A stretch of DNA of 64,000 bases from Clytia hemisphaerica (taxonomy: Eukaryota). Below the pieces are notes generated by a model, which was not told the DNA's origin, did not search any database, and saw nothing but the letters and a program-made list of their open reading frames with translations. The stretch spans positions 116,759 to 180,758 of the forward strand of contig NW_027103826.1 of NCBI RefSeq assembly GCF_902728285.1. The letters are read 5' to 3'. Positions 33,233-64,000 of the stretch are shown here, piece by piece (positions within the stretch are counted from its first letter, which is position 1; each line of letters begins with the position of its first letter). Made by a program: the position numbers and the translations under genes.

Positions 33233-33305
33233 GGACTGGTATGGACTAGACCAAACATTTGACAACATAATCAACCGGATAAATATTGATTATCCACAAG
33301 CTTAA
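33233..33305 (+). CDS. Merlin/ISXO2-like transposase copy 1, exon 4 (stop TAA 33303..33305)
   Basis: Acceptor tttttag. Encodes (R)DWYGLDQTFDNIINRINIDYPQA*. The five exons sum to 936 nt, which is 312 codons, so the phases are consistent. Confidence 0.55.
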
Positions 33306-35455: not shown

Positions 35456-36671
35456 TATCCATAATTTTTTTGAATTTCCTTGTTAGAATTTTCGTTGATT
35501 TCCGTCATATTGTTGCATTTTCAGGATCGTGGCAGCACAGAAAAAATTTGACGTCAATATATAAGGGGGGGTAAACCGGCCGGAGTACCATTTTCAACTA
35601 GTAATATCTCCTAAACCAAGCATTTTATGAGGCTTTTGTAGCTACCAATCGAAAGAGGACAAAATTCTGAACAAAAAAAACTGGTTTTGGGCGCCACCTA
35701 GCCGTTAACGATTATCACCATGCATTAACTCCTTTGATACCGTTCCAGCCAAAATCGTTCCTATTGGAACGACGTTTTCTCCAGCCTCTGATAGAAAGAA
35801 ATTTTCAATCGCTTTGAAACTGCATTTTCTTGAAAGTTGATACTTTTAATTAAAACGAAAACGACGTTTTCATACCGTGAAAAGCACAGCTCAAAATCAT
35901 ATATTTACGCTGTGCCGACGAATCGAGATTCTATTCATCGCGCAATCAGCGAAGACAAAAGTAACCATGACGACCATCCAAGATCTTGGATGAGCGTCAT
36001 AGTCGATATTTTTATTCCCGTCGTTGAAAACACAACTTACAAAAAGTCATCAATGCTTTTTAAAAAGAGTCAGTGATAGAGAATCATAACATAAAGTCTG
36101 TCTATTATTTCGATTCAATTAAAGTGACATTTCCATAATTAAAAGTTTAGTAATTACTGTTATACATTTGGGGATCATGTAAGAGATTTCTTTCGAAATA
36201 AACTCATTTCAACTAAACTTGGAGGTTGTTTCTGGGGAATTCGTAAATAGTAAACTGCATACTGATACAGTCTGCTAGACATTAATATGGTAATATTTGC
36301 TCTTCATCTTTGATTTTTTTTACAGTGATTAGATTGACACATGCGCGATAAAATTTCTATTATTTTGTCTTCAGAGGTTACTATTTTCTTTGAAAACTTA
36401 ACCTCTGATACTCAGGGTAACGTTTTCAAGTCTTTCATTAGTAAGTACGTTTCCTTTTTTTCATCAAAACGTGATTAAAACAGTACGCATTTTTATATAA
36501 TTTGCGAAAACTTCTTCCGTAAAAGTAATTTCGGAGAGCTCAATTCACGAAATATTTTCCGCGAAAATTACTTCCCTTAGGGTAGGAGCGATAATGGAAT
36601 GTAGTTAGAAGGTCGGTTATGACAACATAAATTTTATCCAGACAATTTCTAACACAGATATTTTTGTTTAG

Positions 36672-36969
36672 GAGGTGTAACCGACCATGTCGCAGATGTT
36701 TGAGGCTCCGAGATGGGACAATATTTGAATCGTGGACGCATATTTCCCTTAGTGATTTATTTTTGATAATCTTCCTGTGGTCAAACAACGTTTCTATGAC
36801 CAAAATAACGAATATTGTTGGAATACCAAAAAAAACAGTGATCAAAATGTTGCAGCTTCTTCGCCAAGTCTGTACGAATGATCTAGCCAGAAACCCAGTT
36901 GCTATTGGTGGTGGGGGTGCTAATTTTGTTGTCCAGATTGACGAGAGCCAATTCCATCACAGGCAAAGA
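36672..36969 (+). CDS. Merlin/ISXO2-like transposase copy 2, exon 1. This is the duplicated paralogue; its unit has no exon 0, so it is probably 5'-truncated
   Basis: Near-identical to 31823..32123 with one Gly codon fewer. There is no upstream zinc-ribbon exon inside its 4.85-kb unit. Confidence 0.5.
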
Positions 36970-37170
36970 GTATGTTTTCATACGAGTGAGAGAGATTTTT
37001 AACTACATTTTGCTCAAAAGTTTGTCATTCTTTTAAATTTTTGATAGAATCGAATGCATATTTTGCAGTTTAGTCTTAACAAAAAAATTGAATATTTTCC
37101 AAAGTGCGTTCGACTTCATTACATAATGTTGTTTTGACCCTATTCTTTTAATTCTCGTTTCTTTATATAG

Positions 37171-37452
37171 GGAGGAAGAGGAAGAAGAGCGCAGGCACCT
37201 GTTTGGGTATTTGGCTTGGCCGATACTCAATACACACCCGCCAAAGGCTATATGGAAATTGTGAACAGGCGAAATAGGCCCACTCTCACTGCTGTAATTA
37301 ATCGGGTTTTGAACCCTAACTCTGTCATACATAGCGATGAATGGCGTGCTTACAATAGGCTTCGAAACTTTGTACCGAACTGCATACAACACGATACCGT
37401 AAACCATACATACAACTTTGTCGTCGATCCTCTAACAGGAGCCCACACACAG
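37171..37452 (+). CDS. Merlin/ISXO2-like transposase copy 2, exon 2
   Basis: Same as copy 1 exon 2 with a 3-nt insertion (..NFVVDPLTG..). Confidence 0.5.
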
Positions 37453-37658
37453 GTAACCAGACAATAATTTTTTGTAAAATTAGCCATTGGGCTCGGTACA
37501 TTTTTTTAGTTCTCTGTAAAATTCTTGTAAAGTTTGCAGTTCCCTAAAAACCCCACCCCACCCATAAAAGTAAAAGCTTTGAAAAGTGATATTTTTAACG
37601 TTTTTATATTTTAGAAAAGTTTATACTTTTTTCAAACCCTTTCTTTTTTTTTCATTAG

Positions 37659-37759
37659 AACATTGAATCGTACTGGAACCGTTTTAAGCTGAAACTGAAA
37701 GCTATGAAAGGTGTCGAACGAGCCAATTTACAAAGTTACATGAACGAGTTCATGTGGAG
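37659..37759 (+). CDS. Merlin/ISXO2-like transposase copy 2, exon 3
   Basis: Identical splice sites and coding sequence to copy 1 exon 3. Confidence 0.5.
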
Positions 37760-38086
37760 GTAATTATTTTTCAATCGGAAAGAAATGATTTGAAGCTACC
37801 TGACACTGGCAGGCCTCTCATAACAGATGAGATGAAGTTTTTATAAGATACTTTAATGATTGGTCATTTGAAGTAATAACAATGACGTGTTCTTTAGAAA
37901 AAAGTAACAAAATTGTTTTTATTACTGGTTAACGACCAACCGAATCAAATGAGAGCTTGTAAAAATTCAATCTCGTCGTCCCTCTCATAAGGAATAAAAC
38001 AGCTAGTCCTAAATTTTTATTGGGTTTAAACGTCATTTGATAATCCATAGATTAGGCAATTTAATGATTTTGTAATTCTTTTTTAG

Positions 38087-38159
38087 GGACTGGTATGGAC
38101 TAGACCAAACATTTGACAACATAATCAACCGGATAAATATTGATTATCCACAAGCTTAA
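38087..38159 (+). CDS. Merlin/ISXO2-like transposase copy 2, exon 4 (stop 38157..38159)
   Basis: Identical to copy 1 exon 4. Confidence 0.5.
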
Positions 38160-39354
38160 GTTTGCTTTCATTGAAGTATGATTTTTATGTTTTCTTTTGT
38201 TATTGATTCACAAGTCATAGTTTGACTTCTAGAGACTAAAGCTATTTTTAGGTATTTTGTATGTATATGGTATAACATTTCATTATGCAGAACAAAGACT
38301 CTTACCATTAAAAAATATACTTTAACTCTTTATATTTTGCCCTTTCCGCCAAAATTTGTCTCGCGATATATCGCGTGGGATCGTCGATTCGCGAAATCAA
38401 ATCGTCAAATCCACGCGAAATTTTTGCTACCATTTTAGCAAACAAAGTTATCAAAACCATGCAATTTTGGTAAAATATGTCCATTTTTAGGGTCTTTCGC
38501 GAAATTATACTCACGCGAAAGTCTTGACTCACAAAATTAAATCCTATTAAAGTAGCCTTAATCTGTCTTATCTTGAAATTGTTCACATTGGTTAGTGCTC
38601 CTTCTTTTCCAGGCAACGTTGAAAAAAAGGTAAACAAACAGGGTAAAAAGGCACGTATAGTAGTGACAGGAACAATGTGAAAAGTATACTTGGGTGCGAT
38701 GTATACTTGTCTTGGGTGCGAGGAATACTTATGAAATGTACAGTGCTCAGTAAAATTGTTTTGTGTAAGTTCCTGTGAAAAGTGCTGAACATCCTAGTTT
38801 GGAAGATAGGCAAAAAAGTGTTCTTTTTCGCAAAGGTTGATTTTAGTTAAATCGGAGTCAAATGGGTCAATCATGAAAATTAATTCTTGCGAAATATATA
38901 GTCAAATAATCTTGATTTCCTTAAGATTTGCTCAAAAATTAAGAACATCTTAAAAACATGCCAAGGTTGAAATGAAGAAAAGTCTACTAAGGGATTCTTA
39001 ACGCTTAAATAACAGACACAAAACATAATTTCAACATTGTTTCAATGTCCAACTAATGTCTGATGTTGAAATAACATTTTTTGAACAACAAATTTCAAAG
39101 CTACTTTTTTGGATTCATTTTCTCAAAAAAATTGTTTTTAGCACTTACAAGTACCATAACGGGCGTTTTTCAGACTTGTCGAGCGCCCTCTCCACCCGAT
39201 ATAATTTATTTATAGAAGTGTATTTCTCAGGTCCATTGACCTCTATGAAACAATCTTACATTTTTACAATTTATAGATCTTATCATTCGTTTGTCAATTC
39301 TGTTATAGAGTTTTACAGTTAGGTACCTGGGCCTCTAACCCACTCTTCTTATAA

Positions 39355-40302
39355 TCATGTTGTTTCCGTCGAAAATTTCTTTAAATAGAGTTTAGTCCTA
39401 GGACTACCTCTCACTTTCCATATACCACTCTTGTCTTTTTCATTCGATGTTTTTTCTTTTGCTTTACGATGCCATTGTTTTATTATCTCCCGTTCTTTCC
39501 TTGAAAAATCGTCTGATACCCTGAAATCATCTTTATCTAGTTTGTGGGCTGATGCAAGTATTCTAATCCTTTCTTCTTCACTCTCGAGAGTAACTTTCAA
39601 TGGTCTCCATCGTTCATTTGTATACATTTCATCTTTACGAGCACCTATGCGTTCTACCTTGATTATCGTCACATCGAAACCCATTTGTTGTTTCAGTATT
39701 CTTTCTATGAAATCTTTGTCACCAACTCGTTGCTCTTCTTCGTTTTCGTGCTTGTTTTCACCTAAATCATGCACCATGATGTTGCACTTGGTTGATTTGA
39801 GCCAACGCTCCTCTTCGTTCACTGATTTGATGAAACTTTTTATGGTCACCTCTTGTTTTTGTAGATCTTCTTTGGTGACTTCTGCATATGATTGTTTTTT
39901 TGTTTCTGTGTTGTTGAGCTGTGTTTCAGATCGTTTGTTGTTCCGTTCTTTGTTGACGTCTTTTTTTTTCATTAGCTTCTCGATTTTCCTTTCTAGAGAG
40001 GTTATTCTCTCGTTGAAACCTAATTTCAATCCATGATGTTCATCTTTGTCTGCTTCTTTCGTTGTGATGTCACTGCGAGCTTTTTGTCTGCTTGTTTTAA
40101 TCCTCTCAAATAAGAGTGGCGTTATTGTAACACAATTTCCACATTCGAAGCGCCGGCTTTTATATTGCAGACAAAGCTGAATCTGATAGGCCGGGAGCTC
40201 AGAGCAAGCATAATGGACAAGTCTATCACATCTCCTACATTGTAAGGTGTCGTTATCTTCTATGATGGTGTTTATCAAACAGTTATTGGTTGTGCAATAC
40301 AA
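39355..40302 (-). CDS. LINE-1 ORF1p-like protein (Transposase_22-like RRM plus C-terminal domain) with an N-terminal PHD-like C4HC3 zinc finger and a coiled coil; 315 aa, intact
   Basis: The C-terminal half (KCNIMVHDLGE...FIERILKQQMGF...RWRPLKVTLESEEERIRILASAHKLDKDDFRVSDDFSRKEREIIKQW) parallels L1 ORF1p (NLRIIGVPE...R.IIVKF.K...KE.IL.AAREK....G..IRL.AD.SAET...RREW). The N-terminus is CLINTIIEDNDTLQCRRCDRLVHYACSELP..C..C, followed by a K/E-rich coiled coil. There is no RT or endonuclease ORF nearby. Confidence 0.6.
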   Translation of the reverse strand: MYCTTNNCLINTIIEDNDTLQCRRCDRLVHYACSELPAYQIQLCLQYKSRRFECGNCVTITPLLFERIKTSRQKARSDITTKEADKDEHHGLKLGFNERITSLERKIEKLMKKKDVNKERNNKRSETQLNNTETKKQSYAEVTKEDLQKQEVTIKSFIKSVNEEERWLKSTKCNIMVHDLGENKHENEEEQRVGDKDFIERILKQQMGFDVTIIKVERIGARKDEMYTNERWRPLKVTLESEEERIRILASAHKLDKDDFRVSDDFSRKEREIIKQWHRKAKEKTSNEKDKSGIWKVRGSPRTKLYLKKFSTETT

Positions 40303-41809
40303 TATCCATAATTTTTTTGAATTTCCTTGTTAGAATTTTCGTTGATTTCCGTCATATTGTTGCATTTTCAGGATCGTGGCAGCACAGAAAAAATTTGACG
40401 TCAATATATAAGGGGGGGTAAACCGGAGTACCATTTTCAACTAGTAATATCTCCTAAACCAAGCATTTTATGAGGCTTTTGTAGCTACCAATCGAAAGAG
40501 GACAAAATTCTGAACAAAAAAAACTGGTTTTGGGCGCCACCTAGCCGTTAACGATTATCACCATGCATTAACTCCTTTGATACCGTTCCAGCCAAAATCG
40601 TTCCTATTGGAACGACGTTTTCTCCAGCCTCTGATAGAAAGAAATTTTCAATCGCTTTGAAACTGCATTTTCTTGAAAGTTGATACTTTTAATTAAAACG
40701 AAAACGACGTTTTCATACATACCGTGAAAAGCACAGCTCAAAATCATATATTTACGCTGTGCCGACGAATCGAGATTCTATTCATCGCGCAATCAGCGAA
40801 GACAAAAGTAACCATGACGACCATCCAAGATCTTGGATGAGCGTCATAGTCGATATTTTTTATTCCCGTCGTTGAAAACACAACTTACAAAAAGTCATCA
40901 ATGCTTTTTAAAAAGAGTCAGTGATAGAGAATCATAACATAAAGTCTGTCTATTATTTCGATTCAATTAAAGTGACATTTCCATAATTAAAAGTTTAGTA
41001 ATTACTGTTATACATTTGGGGATCATGTAAGAGATTTCTTTCGAAATAAACTCATTTCAACTAAACTTGGAGGTTTCTGGGGAATTCGTAAATAGTAAAC
41101 TGCATACTGATACAGTCTGCTAGACATTAATATGGTAATATTTGCTCTTCATCTTTGATTTTTTTTACAGTGATTAGATTGACACATGCGCGATAAAATT
41201 TCTATTATTTGTCTTCAGAGGTTACTATTTTCTTTGAAAACTTAACCTCTGATACTCAGGGTAACGTTTTCAAGTCTTTTCATTAGTAAGAAAACGCCCC
41301 GCAAACTTTCTCATTTCTCAATTGTTCTCTTTCTGGCGGTATTGAAAGAGTTAAAACAACGCTCCGTGCCTGCTATTACGGTTCTCTAGAGAATTGGACT
41401 CGTATATAGAAGAACATTAAGAAGAACATCCCATCTGAAAATTGAGAAAATAAAGTCCAAATAATACGTAAATACGATTTTAGAACAAAATTAAAATGCC
41501 TTGCGCATGATTTTATTTTCGTCACCCGGTAATGCAGAAATGAAGAGTTTTTAGATTTGGCCGCGGGTTGAATTTTTTTCATTCATTCATTCATTCATTT
41601 AATGAATGAAAATGAAATGGGATGTCTTTTCCCCCAAAAGAGCAAGAAAAAAAATTTAATCACGTGTTTTTTTTTCTTTCACGTTTTTTTTCTTTTGTAT
41701 CCCCTTTTCATTTTTCTTTCTTTATTTGTTGGCTTGAACGTCAGACGTTCACATTAGTAAACTTTGAGGGAGATTTCATTTCGGTCATTTGCCAATTGAA
41801 ATCGTAATC

Positions 41810-43521
41810 ATGACCTTTGAAGACATATTAGCGATTTGTGAAGATGAGCAAGTTTTGATAAGGGAGCTGATGGATGCTGGCTTATTAGCGAGTACAAGAA
41901 AATGTATGAACCGGAGAAAACACGAAGACGATATTCAGATGATATTATTGCCAGATATGAAGACTTGGTAAGACGTTTTAATTTGCTTTTGTTTACCCTG
42001 AAAAATCATTTACGTTTCTATGAAGCTCTTTCTCCTTTCATGAATCTGATAAATATCAATCTCAAAGATGTTTGATACTTTCATTTGAAGTCTTAAAAGC
42101 CTTTAAATATAAAATATATCAAGAAACAAAGTCTAATAAAATATCAACACAATATATCAGCAGTAAACAAATAACTGACGCTTAAAAGCGGCAATTTTTT
42201 AATCCCCAGTAAGTTAATTATTTTTAACTTATTTTTTGCCTACATGTTTTTAAGGCGATGCCCAAGATGTACAAGCAAAGCTTCATTCAAGACGGGGTCG
42301 TTTTTTTCGCAAACAAATATACCACTTTCAAAATGGATTCAAGGCATTGATAGATGGGCACGCCAGATGAGCCTTAGGGTAATGATATATTTAAAAAAGA
42401 GGACACAATGAAAAAAACAGACCTTTATGTCCTTTATCGTAAATACTAACCTGATATTCATATGCTGAATTTTCTATCGGTACGTTTTTAAAGCTCTAAA
42501 GACACAATGAAAATATACCATCTACGTAGGCTAGGTCATCTTTTCAAAGCCCTACCTTAAGCTTAAGTAGCTAAATGCATACCCAGCAGGCATGGGACGT
42601 TGTTTTAACGTCCAAAATACGTTTTAAGAAATTTTAAGCTCTTAACAATTTCGGTCCAGTTTAAAAATAAAAACCAGTAAACAGTTTAAAATGTCTGCGA
42701 AATTTTCATGTAATAAAATATACTTTGATTCTTTAGGAGATTGCTGAGGATTTGGACTTGTCGATTCCTACAACAAGCCAAATGATGAAGCATTTTCGAG
42801 AGCAGTGTCAAAGTTTTTTCGACCGCAATCTTCATGAAACTGGTGGCCCTGGTATTCAAGTAAAAGTTAAAGAACTTAAGGTAATACCATTTTTACCGGT
42901 TGAAAGAGAGATCGCTACAATCGGTACAAAATCCTTTTTGCTTATTACCTAACCCTAACAAGAAACTATTTAAAAACAAAAGGTTGTTGAATCAAAACTA
43001 ACCAGATGGCCCGGCTGGTATCCTACTTAAAATTTGGGTATTTCTTAAAAAAGAGAATAGATAACATCGGGTGCCTAGGATTTGTTACTCTTAATCTAGA
43101 CTCAAATTAGTTTTATACTTTTTTTCAATAGAAATGCACCAACACGTGTAATATTCTTATCGCGTTAGATGGCAGTTGCGGACGAGGATACCTTTTCCAC
43201 AATACCAATGGAAGATTCCAGGAAGAAGATTATATGTTTGTGTCACCAATCAAGTCTGGAACCATGGTCTTCACCGACATTCGCGATTTAAACGTAAGGC
43301 CAAATGTTGCCATGTCCAATACTCTGGAGTTGTTTCAAGGCAATGACGATCAAGCGACACAAGCAATTAGATGGCTCAGGCACTTCAGAGGGGTACAATG
43401 TCAAAAGGCTGGTGCCCTATTATCTGAATATAATTTGCGCTTTTGGGTCGATGATGGACTGGAATTCCATGAAAGATTTTTTCAAGCTTTCGTAAGAAAC
43501 TATGAAAATGAATTTGTATAA
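41810..43521 (+). pseudogene. Divergent third IS1595/Merlin-like transposase paralogue, probably degenerate or catalytically inactive. Exon-like blocks at 41810..41967, 42737..42880 and 43132..43521
   Basis: Block A, MTFEDILAICEDEQVLIRELMDAGLLASTRKC.., is the N-terminal F.DE..C..L motif. Block B, EIAEDLDLSIPTTSQMMKHFREQC...TGGPGIQVKVKELK, aligns to ITNIVGIPKKTVIKMLQLLRQVC...GGGGGANFVVQIDES with the first catalytic D replaced. Block C, ..ILIALDGSCGRGY..FTDIRDLNVRPNVAMSNTLELFQGN..RHFRGVQCQKAGALLSEYNLRFWV, aligns to IHSDEWRAY..FVDPLTGAHTQNIESYWNRFK..LQSYMNEFMW. The GGK/RGR linker segment is missing and the A-to-B phases do not join cleanly. Confidence 0.4.
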
Positions 43522-43639
43522 ACTAAAATATATTGATCGCTAATTGTTGATTAAAGTGATAGTTTTTTATGGATCTATGAAAATCTTATATTTTTTATTG
43601 TTCTTTTTTTGAGAAAAAAAATATAAACTTAATTCCTAT

Positions 43640-44882
43640 GCTTTCATCGCCTATGCTTTCATCAATTTGACTAGGTCAAATTGTTTAACAGTGAACCGGA
43701 CATGGCTCTAGGTTGGATTGTTAAACAGTGGAAGGTTGGATTGTTTAAAAGTGGACTAGGTCAAATTGTCAGTGGACCGGACATGACTGTAGGTTAAATT
43801 GTTAAACAGTGGACTAGGTTGGATTGTTAAACAGTGGACTAGGTCAAATTGTTTAACAGTGGACCGGACATGACTGTAGGTTAAATTGTTAAACAGTGGA
43901 CTATAGGTTGGATTGTTTAACAGTGGACTAGGTTGGATTGTTAAACAGTGGACTAGGTTGGATTGTTAAACAGTGGACTAGGTTGGATTGTTAAACAGTG
44001 GACTAGGTCAAATTGTTTAACAGTGGACTAGGTTGGATTGTTAAACAGTGGACTAGGTCAAATTGTTTAACAGTGGACCGGACATGACTATAGGTTAAAT
44101 TGTTAACGTGGACTAGGTGGTTGGTTACTAGTGGACTAGAGGTTGGATTGTTTAACAGTGACCGGACATGGCTAGGGTTGGATTGTTAAACCGTGGATTA
44201 GGTTTGGCTTGTTAAACAGTGGACTGTAGGTTGGCTTGTTTTCACAGTGGACTTGGGGGTTGTTTAAACAGTGGACTGGTTGGATTGTTAAACAGTGGAC
44301 TAGGTTGGATTGTTTAAACAGTGGACTAGGTTCAAATTGTTTACAGTGGACTGTTGGCTTGTTAAACAGTGGACTAGGTCAAATTGTTTAACAGTGGACC
44401 GGATGTGTGGTTTGTTAAACAGTGGACTAGGTTGGATTGTTAAACAGTGGACTAGGTTGGATTGTTAAATAGTGGACTAGAGGTTGGATTGTTTAACAGT
44501 GAACCGGACATGGCTAGGTTGGATTGTTAAACAGTGGATTAGGTTGGATTGTTAAACAGTGGACTAGGTTGGATTGTTAGTGAAATTGTTAAACAGTGGA
44601 CTAGGTTGGATTGTTAAACAGTGGACTAGGTTGGATTGTTAAACAGTGGACTAGGTTGGATTGTTTAACAGTGGACTAGGTTGGATTGTTTAACAGTGAA
44701 CTAGGTCAGATTGTTTAACAGTGGACCGGACATGATTATAGGTTGGATTGTTTAACAGTGAAATACTTTCTGGTCTGTATTTTATAACATTATTAGGTTA
44801 AACGACATTAGGTTATATTCTTTAACAGTGCTCTCCACTACTAAAGAATCCAACCAGTGACCACGCTAGCTGCACCTGATCC
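43640..44882 (-). repeat. Right arm of the giant element: the same minisatellite in inverted orientation plus a unique terminus
   Basis: CTAGGTTGGATTGTTAAACAGTGGA units are the reverse complement of the left array. 44760..44882 is the reverse complement of 26542..26650. Confidence 0.8.
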
Positions 44883-49381: not shown

Positions 49382-49924
49382 CACAATGAAAACTGACCTT
49401 CCGTTTCTTGTTTTATTTATCTATGATGAAAATATCAAAAAATATTCACCGAGCCATCAAGTGTATTTCTGGATGTGCGTACTCTGTATTCGTGCTTTTG
49501 TCTCTGAATAAAAACGGAGAAAGTAAATATAATACCAATACATCATACCATTGCAAAATTGCATTTTTACTTTATGTGGCATACATCTACATATTACACT
49601 ACGTATCATTTTTGATTGCAACTCGTTTTACTACCTCATCTACTAAATGGAGGTAATTAAGATAGATAATTAAAGAAAGTCTATTATGCTATCAATGAAA
49701 TACGGAAATGAATCAATTAAAGTGAATATAAACAAGCAACATGCTGAATGGACCTACCTGATTAACATCAGATGAAAATAAGAAAAAAGTGACAATAATT
49801 GTACAAAAATTCAGAATGGAAAAATAAAGCTTGTGTGTTGAATAATGTAAAATGGTAAAAAGGAATTTCCCCAAATACGAAAATCACTTAAACCATTCAG
49901 GCTCAAAAAACCTTTTAAGCTGTT

Positions 49925-51020
49925 TTTGGCCCAAATTTGCCCAAAATAATTTTCCTTAAAAATCTGGCTCCGTCACATTTTGGGCATTGCCATTTTGCAT
50001 TATTGTGCAAAAAATCAGAAAGAAAATATGAGTCAACATTGAGAAAAGCTATATTTTCTTATTTGGTTAAAGGGAATTTCCCCAAAAATACGAAAATCCG
50101 TCTTTTAAGGCAAATAAGAATTTCCCGGGAAAAACCACTTCAGTCATTCTTTAGAGAATCTTGCACCCCATCTTTGTACAAAAAATCAGAAAAAAGTAAT
50201 AACAGGATTTTGCATAAAGTCCAAAAAACCCTATATTAGGCAGTTTTTGACCCAAATTTGCCCAAATATATTTTTTTTCGAAAATCTGGCTCCGTCACAT
50301 TTTAGGCATTGCCATTTTGCATCATTGTGCAAAAAATCAGAAAAAAATAATGAGTCAACATTGAGAAAAGCTATATTTTCTTATTTGGTTAAAGGGAATT
50401 TCCCCAAAAATACGAAAATCCGTCTTTTTAGGCAAATAAGAATTTCCCGGGAAAAACCACTTCAGTCATTCTTTAGAGAATCTTGCACCCCATCTTTGTA
50501 CAAAAAATCAGAAAAAAGTAATAACAGGATTTTGCATAAAGTCCAAAAAACCCTATATTAGGCAGTTTTTGGCCCAAATTTGCCCAAATATATTTTTTTT
50601 CGAAAATCTGGCTCCTTCACATTTTAGGCATTGCCATTTTGCATCATTGTGCAAAAAATCAGAAAAAAATAATGAGTCAACATTGTTAAAAGCTATATTT
50701 TCTTATTTGGTTAAAGGGAATTTCCCCCAAAATACGAAAATCCGTTTTTTAAGGCGAATAAGAATTTTCCGGGAAAAACCACTTCAGCCATTCTTTAGAG
50801 AATCTTGCCCTCCATCTTTGTACAAAAAATCAGAAAAAAGTAATGACAGGATTTTGCAAAAAGTCCAAAAAACCCTATTTTTAGGTAGTTTTTGGCCCAA
50901 ATTTGCCCAAATTAACTTTTTCTCAAAAATCGGGCTCCGTCACGTTCTGGGCATTGCCATTTTGCATCATTGTGCAAAAAATCAGAAAAAACTAATGAGC
51001 CAATCCTGAGAAAAGCTGGT
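49925..51020 (+). repeat. Satellite: ~322-bp unit x ~3.4 copies (it produces the near-identical ORFs 49937.., 50247.., 50569..), followed by a (GACGAACG)n microsatellite at 51025..51055
   Basis: Units start at ~49925, 50247, 50569 and 50890, with >95% identity. Confidence 0.8.
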
Positions 51021-52274: not shown

Positions 52275-55200
52275 TCAAGCTGATGGCAATGAGCCTCCAA
52301 AGTTGAAGTTTTGTTCTGGTGCAGCACCCCCACCCCCGCCGTTTGCGACTTGGAATTGGAATCCTCCTTGTTCTTCAAGTTTCATCGACTCTGCAGAGAA
52401 AAATATAAAACACGTAAATTTTCTCATTCTGATGAAGTACTTTTTGATAGGTTTAAACATAAATGTTGTGTCCGCATAAGGGACAATAAGCTGCTATAAT
52501 AACCCTCTTTAACAATGGCGGAATTTACATTGAGATTTGTTTTAAAATACCTTATTACACGAAAATAAGTAAACATGTAATTAATTAACACGAGTATAAG
52601 AAATTTTGTGTTAATTAAAAGTAGTACACAAAGGCTTACACAATGTAAATTGAACTTACCGAGCTTATTTTGTTTGTTGATACCGGTATTGATGACAAAC
52701 TGTACATTATTCTTTTGTTCCTCGTTCAACGATTGCGTCATGACAGTGAACAGCTTACCGTCGCCTGCTTGGATGCCTAGAAAATAATAGAGGGTGCATA
52801 TCAATGAAATTGCATACTCTTAAAAATCTGGAAAATTTTCAAGCAAAAGAGCTTATGGTATTCTCCTTACAGAGGATTCCCGGTTCAGTATTGAGCGGTC
52901 TAGGAGTCGTCTCGTTAGAACCGTCTTACACTGTAGTTTATACTGCCTGCCAGCTTGCGAGACACTGACACACAGTTTTTTGGATCAAGTGCGTTAATAC
53001 AGCTTGAATCATCCATTATTATGGAATCGATACCCAGTACAGTCACTGACAGGCTTCCTGAGTTTCTGTCTTCCCAATTCCCCTCAAATGGCATGGGTCG
53101 GCCCGGGCGAAGGTACATTCACTTGTCAAGTGAATCACAGCAGCGAGTGGGAATCGAAACCCGACCTTCTGGATGGCAGTCAAAATTGATAACCACTACA
53201 CTACTGCGCCTGCTTAATACCATATTAGTTAGTGCCAAAGCAACGCTTTTCTTGTCATATTGACCTAAAAAATTCGCGAGATTTGTCAAATTTGCAGAAT
53301 TTTAAGAAAGCCCCTTTTTTTCTGTCCGAGGCGTAAGTTTACGTAAGCAGTGAAATAAAGGTTTGATTTCTTGCGTAGTGAACGATACCTTGAAAAGTGT
53401 TTTTGAAAGTAATGAATTCGTCAACATAAGGGTTATCGTCGAGTGGTGTCGTAAACATTTCAAGTTCGTTCGCAAATTCGTCATCGTCGAAAAAGTCGAA
53501 GCCTTTATCCTATAAAAAAACAAAAACGAATATTAAATGAATTTAAATCTTAATTCCGATAATGATTTAGCGGCTCTTTAACCTTTTTTTCCGCTATCGA
53601 GACAATGAAAACAAAGGTTCATAAAAGAAGGTTGCAAAAATTCAACCAAGGCGAATAACGTGAACGAATTTTACCGACGTATTCGAAATACAATATACAG
53701 AACAAAAAGCACAAATGATTACTGGCGGAAAGGTAGACTGTCGTAATGAGAAGTAGCAATGAGGAGTCGCAAACAAACTTAAAAACAGAAATTGGATTCA
53801 AGCCTTAAACTAAACTTAAAAGCACGCCTAAAGAGGGATAATCGTTCAATAACCTCTTTAAAAACAAAGATCTCACTCGTTTCTGGTTGAGCATTTCGAC
53901 GTATTGTGTTCCTTCTTCATCATATTCATCGTCCGAATCGTTCAATTCTAAAAATGAGAGAAATACAAGGTAATGATTTTGTGCTATTTTTGTTACATTT
54001 AATTATTATTATTATTAATTTATTTTCAGTTGGTACACAAAGTAAAGGACCTAACGTCCTAAATAGTTACAGCCTTAAACCGTTACTAGTAAAATCCAAC
54101 TTTTATAAAAATAGTCTTAAATATCTACCACAATTTACATATTGGGCAGGTGCAAAAATCGTTTGGCAACATTTTTAGTTTGCCCCTAAATGTATTAAAC
54201 GTTGCAGAGCTTTTCACATCCTTAGAGAGGCGATCCCAAATGAGGGAGCCAACAAAACTTAAAGATTGTAAGCCAAACTTAACTGTGTTAGCTGAAGGTA
54301 ACATAAGTTGGTCTCCTCGTCTAAGTTTATAGCCCGAGGTTTTCGTGACAAAGAGCTCAGCTAAGAAAGGCGGGTTTAGTTTTTTAAGAGTTAAATAAAT
54401 TTCCTCAAGAATGTTATGAACAAATTTGATGTGAAAAGAAGCAGTTCTAGTTAAAGTTAATAATTTATATAAATTAGAGCCATAGTTTTCATAAACTACG
54501 CTAAGAGCTCTTCGTTGAATTTTTCCAATTTGTTTGTTGTTGTGTTTTACAAAATTCATCCAAATTAATGGACAATAATTGAAATTAGAAAAAATATAGG
54601 CGTGACACAAGGCCTTCGCTGTTTTAAGAGAAATGAAGGGGCGGATGCGCCAAAGAGCGCTGATTTTATTTCCCGCCGACTGGCATTTTGATTCAACGTG
54701 AGAGTTAAAGCGTAGCTTATTATCAATATAGATACCTAAAAGTTTGACCTGATTTTTAACCTTAACTTTGATATTTCCTATATTAAAAGTAGATATAGGC
54801 TCAAAGCTACCAAGAAACATAACTTGGAACTTTCCTGGATTCGCAACAAGCCCATTGATTTTAAACCAGTACAAAATATCTTGAATTTCGATATTGAGTT
54901 TTGAAATAACTTCAGCAAGGGCTTTAGCGATTGCGAAAGAGTGTTGTCATCAGCAAAGTTACAGAGTTCTGCTTCACGGTCAGACAGGGGGGGTCTATGT
55001 ACAAAAAAGCGGCATGTCTCATGGGGTGGGTGGGTGTTTTCAAAAAAATTTAGCTGTTTAGTACTTGTGGGGGTGTCAGGGTCAAATTTCTAATTTGCTG
55101 TTTAGTGTACGTGTACTATACAAGGGGTGTCAGGGTCAAATTTCGGATTTTCTGCTTAGTATTTGTGTACTAAAAAGCCAAAATCAAATCAAATTGTGAT

Positions 55201-58200
55201 TTATTTTAGATTTTTGTCGAAAATTTTTTTAAATTCTCAATTGTTTTTGTCAATTTTCGAGAAAATTTTTTGAAATTTTTTTATGGGAAGAATAAAAAAC
55301 TTGCCCCAAAGTTTCAAGTTTTTTGGCTTAAAATTTTTATTTTATGAAGGGGTGTAGGGTATATTTGGTAGTTTTCTGGATAGTATATTGTACTATGTAA
55401 GGGGGGTGTTGGGGTATATTTGGCAGTTTGCTTGATAGTATATTGTATTATACAGGGGGTGTCAGGATGTATTTGGCAGTTTGCTGGATAGTACTGGATA
55501 GTATATTGTAAAATATAGGGGGTGTTGGGGTGTTTTTGGGAGTTTGCTGGATAGTATTTTGTACATTTTGTACTATAGGGGTGGGTGGGTGTTTAAAATC
55601 GAAATTTGCTACAAAGTACTGATACATGCCGCTGTTTTGTACATGGACCCCCCCCCCTGGGTCAGATAGTAAGAGATCATTCAAAAATATGTTAAAAAGA
55701 AATGGGCCTAAAATGGATCCCTGAGGAACGCCCATACTAATAGATAAAAAGCTACTCAAACTATTTCCAATTTTGACTCTATGGTAACGGTTTATCAAAT
55801 AATCATAAATAAACTGTAGACTATTTTGGTTAAGACTATTGTGGTTAACACCATATGCTGCTAATTTTGCAATCAGTAAATCAGGGGGTAAACAATCGTA
55901 AGCTTTCGATAAATCCATAAGTATTGTACCCACAATATTTGAATCATCAAGTGCCCTTTGCCTAGAACATGCTGCGTACTGTGTCCTTTTCGAAAGCCAC
56001 ACAGTAAATCTGAAAAGCAGTTTTCTAAAAAAGGATTTAATTATTGGGCAATGATTTATTCAAATACTTTGGATACTGTAGAAATATGCTAATAGGTCTG
56101 TAGTTTTTAACACTCGTCGGATCGCCTTCTTTAAGAACCGGGGTAATTGTAGCTCTTTTTAAGGATTCCGGGAAAATAGTCTTGTCGAGACAAGAGTTGA
56201 AGCAATCTTTGAGTGCAAAAGAACAGAGTTACCAGCAAAAATATTTTTGATTTTTATAATGCTAGCGGGATGATCTGAGTATTTTGCAATAGCATTGAGC
56301 ACCGGATCGTCGTTGCATATTGCGGCCACTTATATATGTCCAGTGTCTTAGTTATACCATTAAAACCGCTAATATATTTGGTTTACTCGCTTTTTTATAC
56401 GAGCCAGTAAATATTGGTTCAAGCTAGGTTGTTCTTAATTTTTTGATATGTTCAGGCTTAAATGTTCCTTATACGCTTAGTTTCTTCACTTAAAAACTTA
56501 AAAACTTAAATTCCTAAAATCTGATGCTAAATATTGCTCTTAGGTTTTGGCCAATTTTCAGTCTCGAGTTCTTATAAAATGAACAAATTATTCAATGTAA
56601 TTCTTTGGACGGCTAATATTTCCATTCAAGTTTCAAATTTGATATCCTATAGTCAGCGAAAATTATTATCTTTGAACCAAAGATCATCGAAGATTGCTGA
56701 TCAGTAAAAAAGGCGTACCTTCTTCTTCAGCTGGTTTTTCTTCCGTTTCTTCTTCGATATCTTTCTCGTATTCTGAAAAAAAATTATTGATTGTTACTTA
56801 GTTATTTGAGCAGATAGATTTTAAGATTGTAAGTAACTTGAAAAACCACATTAAATGTATGGGATACTTGGATAAGTTTTCAAGCTATTTGGAGTTTTAG
56901 AGTTTGCGTGAAACACTTGTTCCAAAGTCATAAAATTCCAATCGTCTCAATAATTCAATCGAAATCCGTTCTTGCTTTCGAAGTCTCGCAGCCTGACAGT
57001 TTGGTGCATAGAGGACAAATAGAAACATACTCTAATATTCTCGCTCTGCTTTTTTATTTGAAACAATCCAGGGAAGATACCAGGCGACTTGTACTTACTT
57101 TCATACATGGTGATGAGCCCCTTGAATACAACTAGAAGGGCGGGAACGAATTGAGGGGCGAATAATTCAACAGCTTGAGGGCGGTTTTCTGGTGGTAACG
57201 TTAACAGAGAACAGATACCGAAGACATAGACTTTGCGATCGTGCATTCTGAAAGATAACAATATTAAAAAAGTGAAATTAGGAAAAAATAGGATCAATAA
57301 AGTAGAGGAGATCAACAATTTGGTACTATAAGTAAGTAAACGCTTTATTAATTTATAAAATACGGAGTTCGGGTTTTTCAGGAAAAAAGTTGGCCCATGT
57401 ACTTGTGGACACAACATTTACTCCTACATATTGTAAATATTGTAAAATCTGCGATCCGATCCCATCTCGATAGTTGTTTCAATTGTGAACATCTATTTTC
57501 ATTTAACAATATGTTTATGAATGATGTTGTCCCTAGCGATTTCAGGTTGAATTTAGTTCGTGACAACTTAAAAGTGATCGGCACTGCGGATACTGTTACA
57601 CAATAGAATTTAAAGAAGCATATTTTAACAATGGAATCAAAAGCCTCCAAAGAGTTCCAATTATTTTGACTGTCAACGACGTGATTTTATTTCTTTTGTA
57701 TAATCTATTGTTTTTAATCGTTTTATAACAAGTTTTCATTCCCAAATGTATCTTATAGTTTTTTTAGCAATGTACCAAGTTTTCTACATAAGCTAGTTTG
57801 CAGAATTTCAAGACTTGATAATGATGTCGTAAAGGCTATCGAAACACCGACTTATTTTAAGATCATCGAATTTCTCGCTACCTCTTGGTACGGCTAAAGA
57901 AAATGTCCTCCACCCTCCCTGAACGGTTTTTACTCGAAAAAAAAACCCTGTATGGTTATCATACGTTTGAATCATAGATATCTTAAAATATTTGTCTTCA
58001 TACGATATCTGTGATTTGATTCCTGTCTGAAAAAGGACAGAATTGTTAGGAAGACAGATTATGCCAAAGCATACCCTAAGAAACAGTCAGTATCGTTGAG
58101 CCAGAGCTGAAGGAATTCGTTTGTGAAACCCATTGGATAACGTTCAGTAACACACTTCTCCAAGTGAGATAGCGTAAGGATGGGATTGCTGATCACGCAA

Positions 58201-60280
58201 GAAATGATCTAAAATACAAAATAAAATCAATCAGAATTCAAGACGAGATATCAAAGGATGAGAAAGGACCTTAATGCATTTTTCTTTGAAAATATTATGC
58301 GACCTTTTCTAAATAAAGTATTATTATTATCCATATAGCGGTCATAAAGTAAGCCATTAAAGGTTCAATCGGCGGGCGGTATTGAAAGGTTTTGTGACTC
58401 AAATTGTCATACCCTCGCTAAGGAAACTAAAGCGCCAGGCTTCAGAGGGCTAAACTATCATTAACTGCCCGGGTATAGGGCAATAATGTCATTTGCGGTC
58501 CGCTCGGAATTGGATTGAAGTCGTTGCATTGAAGCAAAGAGACTAAACTAACGTCAGAAAAAAACATTTTTGGTCATTTGTAGCCCGCTCGCAAGGTGCT
58601 AAAAATTTGTTGAAGACATTGCATTGAAACAAAAAGAATTGGTTGACGCTAGAAAAAAACGTTGTTTGAATGTCCGATATGGATAATAATAGTAATAGCG
58701 TTAAGTTTTCGTTCGTTGTTGTCATTAATTCTGCCCTTGCAGAAAATAACAACAATGACCTCAAACTGAACGCTATTGTTACATTATACGTTTGGCTGTA
58801 TACAGTTGGTTATGTCTAGTTCAAACTCGAAGGGGAACTCTTCTTAGACCATGTTCTCACACGCGACGGTTCCGTTTCGCTCCGAAACGGAATGAAGCCA
58901 TTCTATTGGTTGGAAGTGACGTAACACTTGAATGTAACCAATAGAATGACTTCATTCCGTTTCGGAGCGAAACGGAACCATCACGTGCGAACATGGCTTT
59001 AAACAAAAAGATTCGGGCTCGAATCAATCTATATTGGACTATTTTTTACTCAATAGTTTTCTCTGGCGGAAGAATGAAACTTACAACTTGAAGAAGCATG
59101 ACTCTCAATTCACTGGTCTTCAAATCCATAGATAAACGTTCCAAACACAACGAGATGAAAGCTGGTATCGTCTGAAATTTAAAGAAAATGAAATGCACGT
59201 TAAACTATCATATATACCAGTGGTATCATATGATATGAGATCGCCCGATTTTCATGTATTGTAGTACCGATAAATCTGGGACTAGGAGAGCCTAAAGTCG
59301 AGGGTACCAATTCTTTCTTGAGTTGAGATGTGTTTTGTTACGCACGTAAGTTATGACGTGTAATGGTTGAGAGGGATTGGCTGGATATCAGGTGGTATGA
59401 CGTATACTTTATTTTTAACATTCGGAAAGCTTTATGTAAGCTTCATTTAAGGATTACAGTGAGTTTCAGTTGACAATCGTAAGTTTAAACTAAGAAAAAC
59501 CCATTAAAGACTCCGTTTAACGGTGCCACAGGCTTGACACTAAGTTATGAAAAATCAACAATATACAATACGAGATACTTACGCTATCCAAATGACCACG
59601 GTATTGCAAAACAATGACTTCTAACAACTTAGCCGCTTGACACTGCGCTCCTTCCCCTGTGTACTCGATCAACATCTAAAAAATCCAACACATTTATGAA
59701 ATGGTTTTCATCTGGAAATATCAATAAAGAATAGGTCTGGAAACGAGAACGTAGAATTTGAAATAATTTCTATTTTTTTGACCACGTGAACAAAAAAGAG
59801 TGGGCAATCTATACAGTATTTTGACTTGGTGACGTCGCAAGGCTTTCATCCCCCTCTTTGAGGGATTTCTAAAAAAATTCAAATCAACTTCCAGCCTATT
59901 TGATTCACGTTGTGGAGTAATCAAGCGATAAATACCATGCGAAAAAAAGAGACCCTCTACATCTACATCTACGTCTACATACTGACTGACTGAGGACGAC
60001 GGTAAAACACTTTTACCGTCCTCAATTTTGCGGGTCAGAACTGTTGGTCAGTCAATTCAGTCACTCCTCCGCCGTCCTCAAAAATACATAAACTCGCTTA
60101 CAATAAGTGGTAACACATAATCAAAAAAAGAAAAACAGACAAAAAATCTGCAGCATTCCCTTCAAATAGGCACGATACCAACCTGTTTACACATGTTGAA
60201 GATCACTTCACAATACTTGGGATTGGCCAGAAATGCTTGAGGATCCACAGTGACGTAGTTGTGTAAGCATGGCATCATTT
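52275..60280 (-). CDS. Unidentified multi-exon gene (HEAT/karyopherin-like exons, acidic exons, Gly/FG-rich C-terminus). Exons 60183..60280, 59583..59675, 57099..57247, 56719..56772, 53877..53947, 53389..53509, 52659..52775, 52275..52390 (stop)
   Basis: All junctions are canonical GT-AG with consistent phases. The exons encode ..MMPCLHNYVTVDPQAFLANPKYCEVIFNMCKQ, MLIEYTGEGAQCQAAKLLEVIVLQYRGHLDS (compare importin-beta ..CLEAYTGIVQG..), MHDRKVYVFGICSLLTLPPENRPQAVELFAPQFVPALLVVFKGLITMYE, YEKDIEEETEEKPAEEE, ELNDSDDEYDEEGTQYVEMLNQKR, DKGFDFFDDDEFANELEMFTTPLDDNPYVDEFITFKNTFQ, GIQAGDGKLFTVMTQSLNEEQKNNVQFVINTGINKQNKL and ESMKLEEQGGFQFQVANGGGGGAAPEQNFNFGGSLPSA*. An exon between 57248 and 59582 is missing. 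The LINE fragment and a SINE lie in its introns. Confidence 0.35.
52990..53215 (-). mobile_element. tRNA-derived SINE, copy 3 (3'-truncated)
   Basis: Head ..GGCGCAGTAGTGTAGTGGTTATCAATTTTGACTGCCATCCAGAAGGTCGGGTTTCGATTCCC.. plus the core cacttgtcaagtgaat and ggcatgggtcggcccggg. Confidence 0.55.
54000..56100 (-). mobile_element. Non-LTR retrotransposon (LINE) fragment: RT domain, 5'-truncated, interrupted by a nested MITE, (TAA)n-like 3' tail near 54000
   Basis: ORF 55448..56002 has RT motifs (ILMDLSKAYDCLP; GVPQGSILGPFLFNIF). 54880..54965 encodes SDREAELCNFADDNTL (the FADD box). ORF 54125..54874 is the RT C-terminal part. 54986..55668 is an inserted element with TIRs and a roughly 8-bp TSD. 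Confidence 0.65.
54986..55668. mobile_element. MITE nested inside the LINE RT: 30-bp TIRs (AGGGGGGGTCTATGTACAAAAAAGCGGCATG), ~8-bp TSD GGTCAGAC/GGTCAGAT, internal ~60-bp tandem repeats (GGGGTGTCAGGGTCAAATTTC..)
   Basis: The TIR reverse complement is at 55636..55668. Flanking 8-mers differ at one position. The insertion separates the RT motifs from the FADD box. Confidence 0.55.
58859..58990. repeat. Near-perfect hairpin palindrome (44-bp arms, 30-bp loop containing TGACGTAA)
   Basis: ggttccgtttcgctccgaaacggaatgaagccattctattggtt ... aaccaatagaatgacttcattccgtttcggagcgaaacggaacc. Confidence 0.6.
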
Positions 60281-60389
60281 CTGGAAAATAATCTAAGCAT
60301 TTTTTAGATCAGGATGGTCGAGAGAGAAAAAGTAAGGGCCAAAATTGAAATATAATTGAATCTATGGATTTTATACATCTTGTTGAAAG

Positions 60390-61763
60390 GAGTCTGCTAA
60401 ATTGCGTGGGTTGCGTGGGTGCGTGGGTCAATATTTTTGCGTGGGTTAATATTTTTGCGTGGGTCATTTTTTTGCGTGGGTGCGTGGGTCAAAATATTTT
60501 TTGCGTGGGTCAAATTTTTTGCGTGGGTCAATTTTTTTTGCGTGGGTCAAATTTTTTGCATGGGTCATTTTTTTTGCGTGGGTCATTATTTTTTTGCGTG
60601 GGTCAATTTTTTTTTGCGTGGGTCAAATTTTTTGCGTGGGTCAAAATTTATGCGTTGGTCATTATTTTTTGCGTGGGTCATATTTTGTGCGTGGGTCATA
60701 TTTTTTGCGTGGGTCATTATTTTTTGCGTGGGTCAAAGTTTTTGAGTGGGTCACTATTTTTTTGGTGATTTTTTAGTTAAGTCGATTTTTTTACCAAATT
60801 AAAACTTTCGAGTTAGCTAAGACGTTTTCTTTGTCAAAATAAAAATTTTAAGTTATCTTATACAAAAATGTGTTGTGTATATATCTACGAAAACTAAACA
60901 AAAGCACACAGTTTTTATGTAGTAACACCTTGTGGTTTATTTTACATAGCTGCACTTATTTACTATAACATTATACAGAATCAACACACACCCGTCTAAT
61001 TTTTGTAGACACACTTCAGGATCACACTTTTGAATTTTAGCATGCTATATTTCAGGATTCCAGTGTCATGGAAATAAACACTATAACTTTAATTTTTTCC
61101 TCCCTTTTCTATTGCTTTGAAAAAAAGTACAGCGTCTTTATTTCGTCCAATTTTTAAATTGGCCTTTAATGTACTTAAATCAAAGAAATTACAAGTGGGG
61201 TGGACGAAATAATTGACAACGATTAAATTGTTTAGTAATCGGTCGCCTAATGAATATAACTTTTGTAGAAAAATTTTCAGATTTTGTCGCCATTTGCTTT
61301 GTTCTTTAACACTCAAAGGAAACCCAAAAGATTAAAGCGTGCTATAAGAAGCTTTAAAGCTTCTAAAAATATTCTATAAAGCTTCCTCTTATAAAAAGAC
61401 AGCTACAGCTATGCAAAATAAACAAAATAAACCAAAACGTGTTATGTAAAACACATCCAACATTTTGGATGTGACCAGTTCGAATTTCAAGGGAAGGCAT
61501 TTTTTCGAATTACAGAGAGAATTTTGACCCACGCAAAAATTTGACCCACGCAAAAATATGACCCAAACAATAACCCACGCAAAAAATAATGACCCACGCA
61601 AAAATTTTGACCCACGCAAAAAATTTGACCCACGCAAAAAATTGACCCACGCAAAATTTTTAACCCACGCAAAAAATATTTTGACCCACGCACCCACGCA
61701 AAAATTACCCACGCAAAAATATCGACCCACGCACCCACGCAACCCACGCAATTTAGCAGACTC
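60390..61763. mobile_element. 1.37-kb non-autonomous foldback-like element with a 9-bp TSD, TGTTGAAAG
   Basis: Termini GAGTCTGCTAAATTGCGTGGG and CCCACGCAATTTAGCAGACTC are reverse complements. TGTTGAAAG at 60381..60389 recurs at 61764..61772. Inverted TTTTGCGTGGGTCA(n) mini-arrays (60400..60770 and 61510..61755) flank ~740 bp. Confidence 0.7.
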
Positions 61764-61802
61764 TGTTGAAAGTGCTTAACTAAGAGTCAATTGTAGGCAC
61801 CA

Positions 61803-63437
61803 TGGGGGGGGGGGGGTGGGTTCACTTTTACGGTATGACGGTATTGGGCCTTTTTACCCCCGGTAAATCGGTATTACGAGAAAAAAACGACGGGATTACG
61901 GTATTTCATTTTCTACCGGTGTCGGTAAATTGCCTGTTTTTTTGTCGGTATTTCGATATTTTTATCAATAAAAAACGGTATTTCGGTATAAAACTATTTA
62001 CCTTTTAGTTTCTTCATGAGTTTCATGAAGAAATTTTTCAAAAAAGATAAGTCTACTCCGCTATTTAAACCAGTAAAATTTTCTTGCTCGCTTCGCTCGC
62101 ACAATCTTGGATGTCCTATTGACTTATTGTCATGGTGAGGTTCTTCAAAATAAGCAAAACTTTACGATATCTAAACAAATATTTTCGTAAATTTTCTGCG
62201 GGCGCATTTTTTAATGACAATTTTTGTGATGCAAATACTGCATCCAACGAATGAGTCTAGATGAAATTTTCTCCGTCAGCACTTAATGATATGGTCGTCT
62301 CTCCGTATTCACCTATATTGCTACTACAATACAATACACTGATACTGCAGTAACTTAGAGACAGTAAAGGCGGTATTTACTCCTTCAATAATTAGTAAAA
62401 GTAGGTTGTTCTAAAAACATCTTGTGCAGTATCGAACGATTAAAAAATAGTTCACATCATGATGCACATAATGCGTTTTCAGGCAATCTAGGCATTCTAA
62501 ATTTTTAATTTTTTCTTGGGCGAAACTCTTGGAACGCCGCACCAGGTACGGCAGGTACGTCGCTTGCCATACCATATTTTTCTTTTTGCCAACAAATGGT
62601 CAGTGTTAAATAAAATCAAAAATTGTGTGACCAAACAAGGCATCCTTGGCTAACAATAGCGTATTAATGCCGTTTTTCAATAACAAAGAAGAGCGAAAAT
62701 TTTCGAATTTAGAATTCGCGTCCTCTAGTTGCACCACAGCACCACCTCTATGAAACCTGTGTTGAAGTCTACGGCTTCTCAGACCATGATTGGACCAAAC
62801 CGCGATTTTTAATTAATTCTCAATATAAAAGACATCTTACGGGTCTGCGAGAAAGAAATTATTGGGGGAAAGGCTTAATTTTGCATTCGCCTCCCGTGAC
62901 AAGCAAGTAACTTTGGCGCGGCAGACCTAAAATATTGCTTTATGAAAGCTCAAACAGCTGTAAAAGAGGCCTTAAAAAGTCGATGATATCGAGAATAAGG
63001 TCACAAAACTAGCAAAAAACTTTATATATTGGTGAAAATGTTTGGTATAAGAACAGGTTTAAAAGAGACCATAAAAAGGTTAAATTTAGCCCAATAAGGT
63101 CACAATCGTTTAACCAAAGATGTAAAAGCAAAATTGGTGCGTGAACGTGAAAATGTTTTTTTTCGCGCGTGAATACGTGAATTGGCAAAAATTTGTGCGT
63201 GAATACCTGAATTGAGGGTTGACTGGAGGGCCTCATAAAGTACAAGACTTGTTTGTACAGTTTCTAATTTGTTACTACACAATAGATTTGATAACTGAAA
63301 ATTCATTATTTTCGAGAAAAAAAACACATAAATATAATATCGGTATCGGTATAAGGCTTCCTTCACCGACGGTATAACGGTATTTGACCCAAAATTTTGT
63401 CGGTATGACGGTATTTAAGACCCCTGAAACCTCCCCC
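61803..63437. mobile_element. ~1.6-kb element with a poly-G (61803) and poly-C (63428) tipped inverted terminus and CGGTAT/ACGGTATT internal repeats. Same family type as 24885..25156
   Basis: ATGGGGGGGGGGGGTGGGTT versus AACCTCCCCCCCCCCAT. ggtatgacggtatt motifs lie near both ends. Confidence 0.35.
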
Positions 63438-64000
63438 CCCCCATCATGTTTATCACACAAAACAATTTTGGGTTGACAAATCTAATAATGATATACAAAT
63501 ATTCCGACAAACAAAGTCCAGGGTTTGAAAGAACAATAACTGTGGTAAGAAAATTATTTTCTTGTTTAGCCAGGTAACATTTTATTTAGCTCATTCAGGG
63601 CAATTCGAGGAAAAGTCTTACCAGTAAAGTAGTCCGCAGTATCGTTGTGGAAAGTTTCCATCAGTAAGAATAAGACATTCCACATTACTGGTGACACTTG
63701 GACAGTGGTACATTCATTGATCAATGCAAACACTTCTTCGTAATATTCTAAATGGAAGAAGGCGTGACAATGCTTAGAAGAATAGTTTATTTTGAAAAAG
63801 AAAAGTAAATTCACAGGATGATTCTGTTAAGAGAAGGACGATTGCCAGGCCGTACGGCGTTTTCAGGAGGTCGAAGTGGCCTTGGTGCATCTCTAACGAA
63901 TGGAGAACAAGCCGGCGAAATATCTAAGACGTAGCATCAAAACAGCAGACTAGCCAATTGGACTATAAAAATTACATATATCTGCTGTCAAAAAGTCTCA

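Follow-up and report, generated by a model that had tools for sequence, protein, structure and literature searches.

A probable non-autonomous foldback DNA transposon of Clytia hemisphaerica and its array-bearing relatives

Drosophila Foldback (FB) elements make a 9-bp target-site duplication (TSD) and have inverted ends built of tandem repeats, with a repeat unit that grows inward from 10 to 20 to 31 bp. Other groups of cut-and-paste transposons are recognised by different hallmarks: an 8-bp TSD and a 5'-YARNG terminus in hAT, a 7-8-bp TSD and a 5'-CA terminus in P/Galileo, a 3-bp TSD in CACTA, and TTAA in piggyBac/Kolobok. The TSDs of MULEs range from 8 to 10 bp (PMC5499845). In the MULE Muta1, which has been dissected by experiment, the TIR consists of a 10-bp terminal motif, GGGTCTACCC, followed by nine subterminal repeats of 12 bp that are separated by 3-4-bp linkers; the terminal motif is needed for cleavage and joining, and the transposase binds the subterminal repeats, excision rising with repeat number (PMC5499845, PMC5225508). 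Muta1 makes TSDs of either 8 or 9 bp (PMC5225508), and it has hundreds of non-autonomous derivatives in which the TIR is kept while the number of repeats varies and is asymmetric, and the interiors are unrelated (PMC5225508, PMC5499845). The MULE-related Rehavkus elements are of the foldback type, with a 9-bp TSD and long inverted termini that contain subterminal tandem repeats (PMC6446971; bioRxiv 10.1101/2024.12.02.626372). Merlin transposons have TSDs of 8-9 bp, and the reported start of every Merlin family is 5'-GG (PMC8101967).

The element at 60390-61763 and described foldback systems

The window analysed here is a stretch of 64,000 nucleotides (64 kb) from a Clytia hemisphaerica contig. 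It contains a small element of 1,374 bp (60390-61763), flanked on the left (60381..60389) and on the right (61764..61772) by TGTTGAAAG. These are the only two copies of this 9-mer in the window and each is flush with an element end, which confirms the exact duplication given in a preliminary description of the sequence. A random 9-mer is expected ~1.3 times per window, and the improbable part is the flush placement at both ends; by arithmetic from the GC content of 36%, the chance of a flush 9/9 TSD is ~7e-6. The repeat cannot be extended in either direction, the adjoining bases being t versus c on the outer side and g versus t on the inner side.

Both ends begin with GAGTC. They form a perfect TIR of 40 bp, at 60390..60429 on the plus strand and, as its perfect complement, at 61724..61763 on the minus strand; the inverted complementarity of the termini thus holds, over a greater length than was first seen. 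Beyond the perfect part one mismatch is followed by 16 more matches, so that 56/57 positions agree over 57 bp (to 60446 on the left). Within the 64-kb window, GAGTCTGCTAAATTGCGTGGG is confined to 60390 (+) and 61763 (-); none is expected, and 100 shuffles gave no match. The terminal motif found throughout the family described below is formed by the first 13 nt, GAGTCTGCTAAAT. As the TSD is perfect and the TIR matches at 56/57 positions, the insertion appears to be fairly recent. No paralogous empty site was found in the window or in the fetched loci of relatives; if the element did transpose with a 9-bp TSD, the empty site would read ...ATCTTGTTGAAAGTGCTT....

Inside the terminal motif lie inverted arrays of a short unit, TGCGTGGGT, of which the window holds 33 copies against 0.16 expected. 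Eighteen are at 60403-60733 (+), 14 at 61527-61750 (-) and one elsewhere, so that 32 of the 33 fall within the two arms, bearing out the earlier account of inverted subterminal arrays around a unique interior. When two mismatches are allowed, TGCGTGGGT(CA) has ~21 copies in the left array (60403..60753, +) and ~15 inverted copies in the shorter right array (61525..61750, -). The arms of ~364 and ~239 bp thus consist of the 13-nt terminal motif and then 21 and 15 repeats, respectively. The first three units are tightly packed, 8-9 bp apart, and sit just inside GAGTCTGCTAAAT, and the later ones follow at 17-20 bp; the inner array repeat is TGCGTGGGTCA plus an A/T-rich linker, with occasional doublets (two in the left array). 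What the arrays repeat is the inner stretch of the element's own TIR (TGCGTGGG).

Between the arrays is an AT-rich, non-coding interior of ~770 bp (~60754..61524), which contains only short ORFs, has no second copy in the 64-kb window and matched no Pfam domain and no Rfam family. In a predicted single-stranded DNA fold (MFE -351.6 kcal/mol), one arm is paired with the other along its length. The element has the MITE features of a non-coding interior, a TIR and a TSD, but at 1,374 bp it exceeds the typical MITE size; the 64 kb hold a single copy, and other assemblies hold hundreds of related ends. The succession of terminus, array, interior, inverted array and terminus, together with the clean 9-bp TSD, supports the earlier reading of a small non-autonomous element with foldback architecture. 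We conclude that 60390-61763 is probably a non-autonomous foldback cut-and-paste DNA transposon, inserted fairly recently with a 9-bp TSD and belonging to a multi-copy family.

Among the closest described systems are Muta1 and the other long-TIR MULEs of Aedes aegypti, known as type 2 foldback elements (Liu & Wessler 2017, PMC5225508, PMC5499845). Common to both are a short terminal motif followed by many short, linker-separated subterminal repeats, a TSD length within the 8 or 9 bp of Muta1, and an organisation like that of the Muta1 non-autonomous derivatives, whose repeat numbers are asymmetric and whose interiors are unrelated and non-coding. The terminal motifs also both begin with G-R-G-T-C-T (GGGTCTACCC in Muta1, GAGTCTGCTA in the small element); over the first 10 nt, 6/10 positions match (binomial p ~0.02), a weak and post hoc agreement. 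The differences lie in the unit, 12 bp with 3-4-bp linkers in Muta1 versus 9-11 bp with 7-9-bp A/T linkers here, in its copy number (9 versus 15-21), in a terminal motif that is not palindromic in the small element, and in the hosts; the loci searched also linked no MULE transposase to the present family. In terms of class features, the element has the 9-bp TSD and the arms of more than 100 bp, made of terminal motif and subterminal repeats, that mark long-TIR MULEs of the type 2 foldback kind.

It also has the features tabulated for Rehavkus, namely a 9-bp TSD, a TIR of 26-400 bp and a subterminal minisatellite (PMC6446971, Table 1). Rehavkus repeats, however, are often long satellite-like units, for example 164 bp in Rehavkus-1_TC, and Rehavkus elements reach ~9.5 kb and encode a PHD-finger transposase. 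Rehavkus has been reported only from arthropods and annelids (PMC6446971), whereas the relatives of the small element are in coral-associated assemblies. The likeness to FB, which was compared by description only, lies in the 9-bp TSD and in units that also grow inward in the small element, from 8-9 bp to 18-19 bp; unlike FB, it has a distinct, non-repeated 13-nt terminal motif and a large unique interior.

Array-bearing relatives and the choice of transposase

Relatives were sought by translating the array; repeats of this kind are often annotated as ORFs by gene callers. The first query was the 134-aa ORF at 60364-60768; the search was then iterated with P0003 and subsequently with a profile of array ORFs. 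The 134-aa ORF matched three ENA proteins, and the contigs concerned were L003 and the Tara Pacific coral metagenome scaffolds L004-L006, in which termini like GAGTCTGCTAAATCGCGTGAG lead into ACGTGGGT/GCGTGGGT arrays. The array-ORF profile recovered 225 representative proteins out of 1.84 billion when the threshold was E<=1e-3, and out of 5.8 billion it recovered 315 clusters formed at 90% identity; nearly all come from ENA. The terminus peptide SLLN[RC]VGCV is present in 44 of 160 fetched ORFs, behind upstream residues that are encoded by the flank and vary from one ORF to the next, and these different flanks indicate many separate insertion sites. Several matches lie on contigs of 1.3-3.6 Mb in long-read assemblies and are therefore host chromosomal DNA. 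Long-read ENA assemblies with relatives are ERZ25067570, ERZ25067561, ERZ25878469 and ERZ25072740.

The terminus itself is strongly conserved. In one relative (L029) the first 31 nt equal those of the element in the window, GAGTCTGCTAAATCGCGTGGGTTGCGTG is common to six loci (L019, L022, L023, L025, L026 and L030), and GAGTCTGCTAAAT is conserved in these as well as in L004, L029 and the JGI contigs L011, L012, L013 and L015. The JGI contigs have the same 19-nt terminus with arrays of GCGTGCC or GCGTGCTTT, and their short units lie near the tip with 18-20-bp units further in, as in the window. Scans of metagenomes and genomes with the 19-nt terminus gave 12 matches, eight of which were set aside as chance occurrences without arrays, in Capnocytophaga genes and other bacteria (L007-L010, L014 and L016-L018). 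Scans of viral contigs for the array or the terminus returned nothing but two phage contigs, both GC-rich and matching through a repeat that arose by chance, and later scans returned none. On one of the JGI contigs (L012, 539-2086), a 515-aa ORF with a DUF3987 match (E=2e-21) is located 207 bp outside the related terminus.

The family is real and widespread, with a nearly invariant terminus and a variable reiterated subterminal motif. Across hosts the 19-nt terminus hardly changes, and the reiterated motif has diverged by subfamily into GCGTGGG, GCGTGCC and GCGTGCT. It is likely that the terminus GAGTCTGCTAAAT(Y)GCGTG, followed by arrays with a GCGTG-core motif, defines the family, and that the family is distinct from a Merlin transposon 16 kb away in the window. 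The preliminary description had counted single-copy status against a mobile element; at the level of the family, relatives with the same terminus occur at many sites in other assemblies. Neither a description of the family nor the terminus string was found in the searchable literature, and while the element is of an ordinary kind, the family is new to description as far as that literature goes. The conserved, searchable terminus GAGTCTGCTAAATYGCGTG ties together hundreds of array-bearing ends from coral metagenomes and long-read assemblies. The family shows putative binding-site arrays diverging while the cleavage-proximal motif stays fixed, and it shows how subterminal arrays can seed minisatellites.

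The complete relatives are non-coding. One (L003) is ~2.0 kb long and has no recognisable duplication in its flanks; another (L030/L031) is 2.7 kb long (10022-12733), with the same insertion present in two different ENA assemblies and flanked by a flush 6-bp repeat, GTATTT. Given the 6 bp in the one case and no duplication in the other, the 9-bp TSD is not yet a rule for the family. For several other relatives only the left end is found within 6-10 kb. In L019 and L026 no Pfam domain was detected in the DNA that follows the termini, scanned for as much as 10 kb, inspection by eye found no autonomous copy downstream of the termini of L004 and L025, and the longer array-derived ORFs are no transposases. 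When the parts of the window that lie outside both elements were scanned in six frames against Pfam, only ankyrin, reverse-transcriptase and fibrinogen domains were returned; the window as a whole holds no DNA transposase other than Merlin. Since no transposase was found beside any terminus, the superfamily is read from architecture and TSD length only.

On that reading, and by analogy with the systems above, a MULE-type transposase (of the Muta1-like type 2 foldback, Rehavkus or FB-like kind) is our leading guess, although a tentative one with slightly less than even odds. A transposase encoded elsewhere and acting in trans would recognise the 13-nt motif GAGTCTGCTAAAT for cleavage, and would bind cooperatively to the reiterated TGCGTGGGT(CA) sites, which are copies of the inner TIR. 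It would then pair both ends and excise the element, and integration at a 9-bp staggered cut followed by repair would yield the TSD. Array length may drift by slippage or unequal exchange, and this would explain the presence of 21 units on one side and 15 on the other.

The alternative that survives best is that the element belongs to another superfamily, or to an unrecognised cut-and-paste lineage, whose TSDs need not be 9 bp long. We consider this unlikely, in that a 9-bp TSD combined with a long TIR of subterminal repeats is the classic signature of MULE, Rehavkus and FB elements, although it would accommodate the flush 6-bp GTATTT, a terminus linked to no transposase at the searched loci and absent from the searchable literature, and the unusual conservation of the 19-nt terminus across subfamilies with different arrays. 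The 6-bp case is, however, an old copy of roughly 80% divergence, from which 3 bp may have disappeared at a junction. The other superfamilies tried do not fit: hAT is contradicted by the 9-bp TSD and the GAGTC terminus, and P/Galileo, CACTA and piggyBac/Kolobok by the terminus or the TSD. A stronger form of the same idea, that the GAGTCTGCTAAAT family is an undescribed cut-and-paste lineage in cnidarian-associated genomes, with a transposase outside the established superfamilies or with variable TSDs of 6-9 bp, is improbable. Were it true, the near-invariant 19 nt would represent the cleavage-proximal terminus, and the diverged reiterated motif would be the transposase-binding motif.

Comparison with the Merlin transposon of the window

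The second element of the window is 18.3 kb long (26542-44882), with a TIR that reads GGATCAGGTGCAG..., inverted 25-bp arrays and an 8-bp TSD, CAAAAATC, at 26534-41 and 44883-90. Its joined exons at ~30.9-32.5 kb match the Pfam domain DDE_Tnp_IS1595 (E=4e-11), which identifies it as a Merlin transposon, and it starts with GG. The preliminary description had pointed to a parallel in layout between this element and the small one, and this is supported, the larger element being real and organised in the same order of terminus, array, interior, inverted array and terminus. On account of the TSDs of 8 and 9 bp it had also linked the small element to Merlin, and it had raised the question whether the two termini, both containing GCGTGG, share a consensus; the assignment and the link are not supported.

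In the Merlin, as in the small element, the arrays (GTCCACTGTTTAACAATCCAACCTA) are built from the inner TIR of the element itself (CACTGTTAAAGAAT), but the array motifs differ, with TGCGTGGGTCA in the small element and CCACTGTTWAACAAT in the Merlin. Each element therefore repeats its own inner TIR with a different motif, which would imply different transposase specificities. Judged from these motifs, the design principle is common to the two elements and the predicted recognition sequences are different. When the first 30 nt of the termini are aligned with an anchor at base 1, the score is reached by 946 of 5000 shuffles. As the terminus alignment is no better than that of shuffles, the shared GCGTGG is not evidence for a consensus, and kinship of the two elements finds no support in either termini or arrays. 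For the same reason, namely that the whole-terminus alignment is not significant, GCGTGG(G)TCA was rejected as evidence for a joint binding site, although it may still be one. Nucleotides 17-25 of the Merlin TIR, GCGTGGTCA, are one indel away from the small-element unit GCGTGGGTCA, a resemblance that we do not take as evidence.

It follows that a Merlin-superfamily MITE, mobilised by the transposase of the 18-kb neighbour or of another Merlin family in the genome, is a rather doubtful alternative, somewhat less probable than that of another superfamily. The host genome does carry Merlin, the neighbour has the matching layout and the one-indel resemblance in its TIR, and the 9-bp TSD TGTTGAAAG is inside the Merlin range of 8-9 bp (PMC8101967). 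This last point is not diagnostic, since the MULE Muta1 gives both lengths (PMC5225508). The terminus of the small element starts with GA and not with the GG reported for Merlin families, and moving the boundary so as to obtain a GG start and an 8-bp TSD was rejected, as neither the TIR nor the TSD survives the shift. No TIR shared with a DDE_Tnp_IS1595 element was found in a comparison with the single Merlin of the window and 231 kb around the relatives, and tblastn with the Merlin transposase of the window gave no match in the same 231 kb, so that no IS1595-type transposase accompanies the relatives there. Elements of like layout that lie side by side are not thereby one family, and a TSD of 8 or 9 bp does not by itself indicate Merlin.

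That there is no mobile element at all, and that a minisatellite was duplicated locally in inverted orientation beside a coincidental flanking repeat, can be dismissed as extremely improbable: minisatellites are abundant in the region and the window holds one copy only, but the TIR stops exactly at the TSD, whose flush placement has the very low chance probability given above, and the identical terminus with arrays at many unrelated sites elsewhere effectively refutes this explanation.

Further repeats and genes of the window

Within the Merlin element, a transposase exon and a PHD-like ORF are doubled by a tandem duplication of 4.85 kb (~31.6-35.9 kb and 36.4-40.7 kb); the ORF at 39355-40302 (-) scores 17.5 bits, below the Pfam cut-off of 24. 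Nested just inside the left array of the Merlin is a third foldback-like structure (28710-29965), with inverted ends GCGTTGTCACTAAAAG... and ...CTTTTAGTAACAACG. It has two pairs of inverted arrays, the (GGTAACGAGT)n pair at 28730-28780 and 29868-29949 and the 30-bp pair at 28866-29123 and 29543-29784.

Starting 30 bp to the right of the small element is a further element (61803-63445) with poly-G/poly-C termini and subterminal CGGTAT motifs. A ~270-bp relative of it with like ends, flanked by TTTTAA, is present at 24886-25158 (72% identity over 159 bp). A near-perfect palindrome of ~150 bp at 58849-58996, with arms GGTTCCGTTTCGCTCCGAAACGGAATGAAG..., is possibly a small MITE, and a 322-bp tandem repeat at 49904-51017 (3.5 copies, 93% identity) gives rise to long spurious ORFs. 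Fragments of a non-LTR retroelement reverse transcriptase lie at 54125-56059 (-) (RVT_1, E ~6e-10). Besides these repeats, the window carries coding sequences that indicate an animal host, namely an ankyrin-repeat exon at ~10950-11276 (+) and a single-exon gene for a secreted protein with a fibrinogen C domain at 18293-19255 (-) (Pfam E=4e-42).
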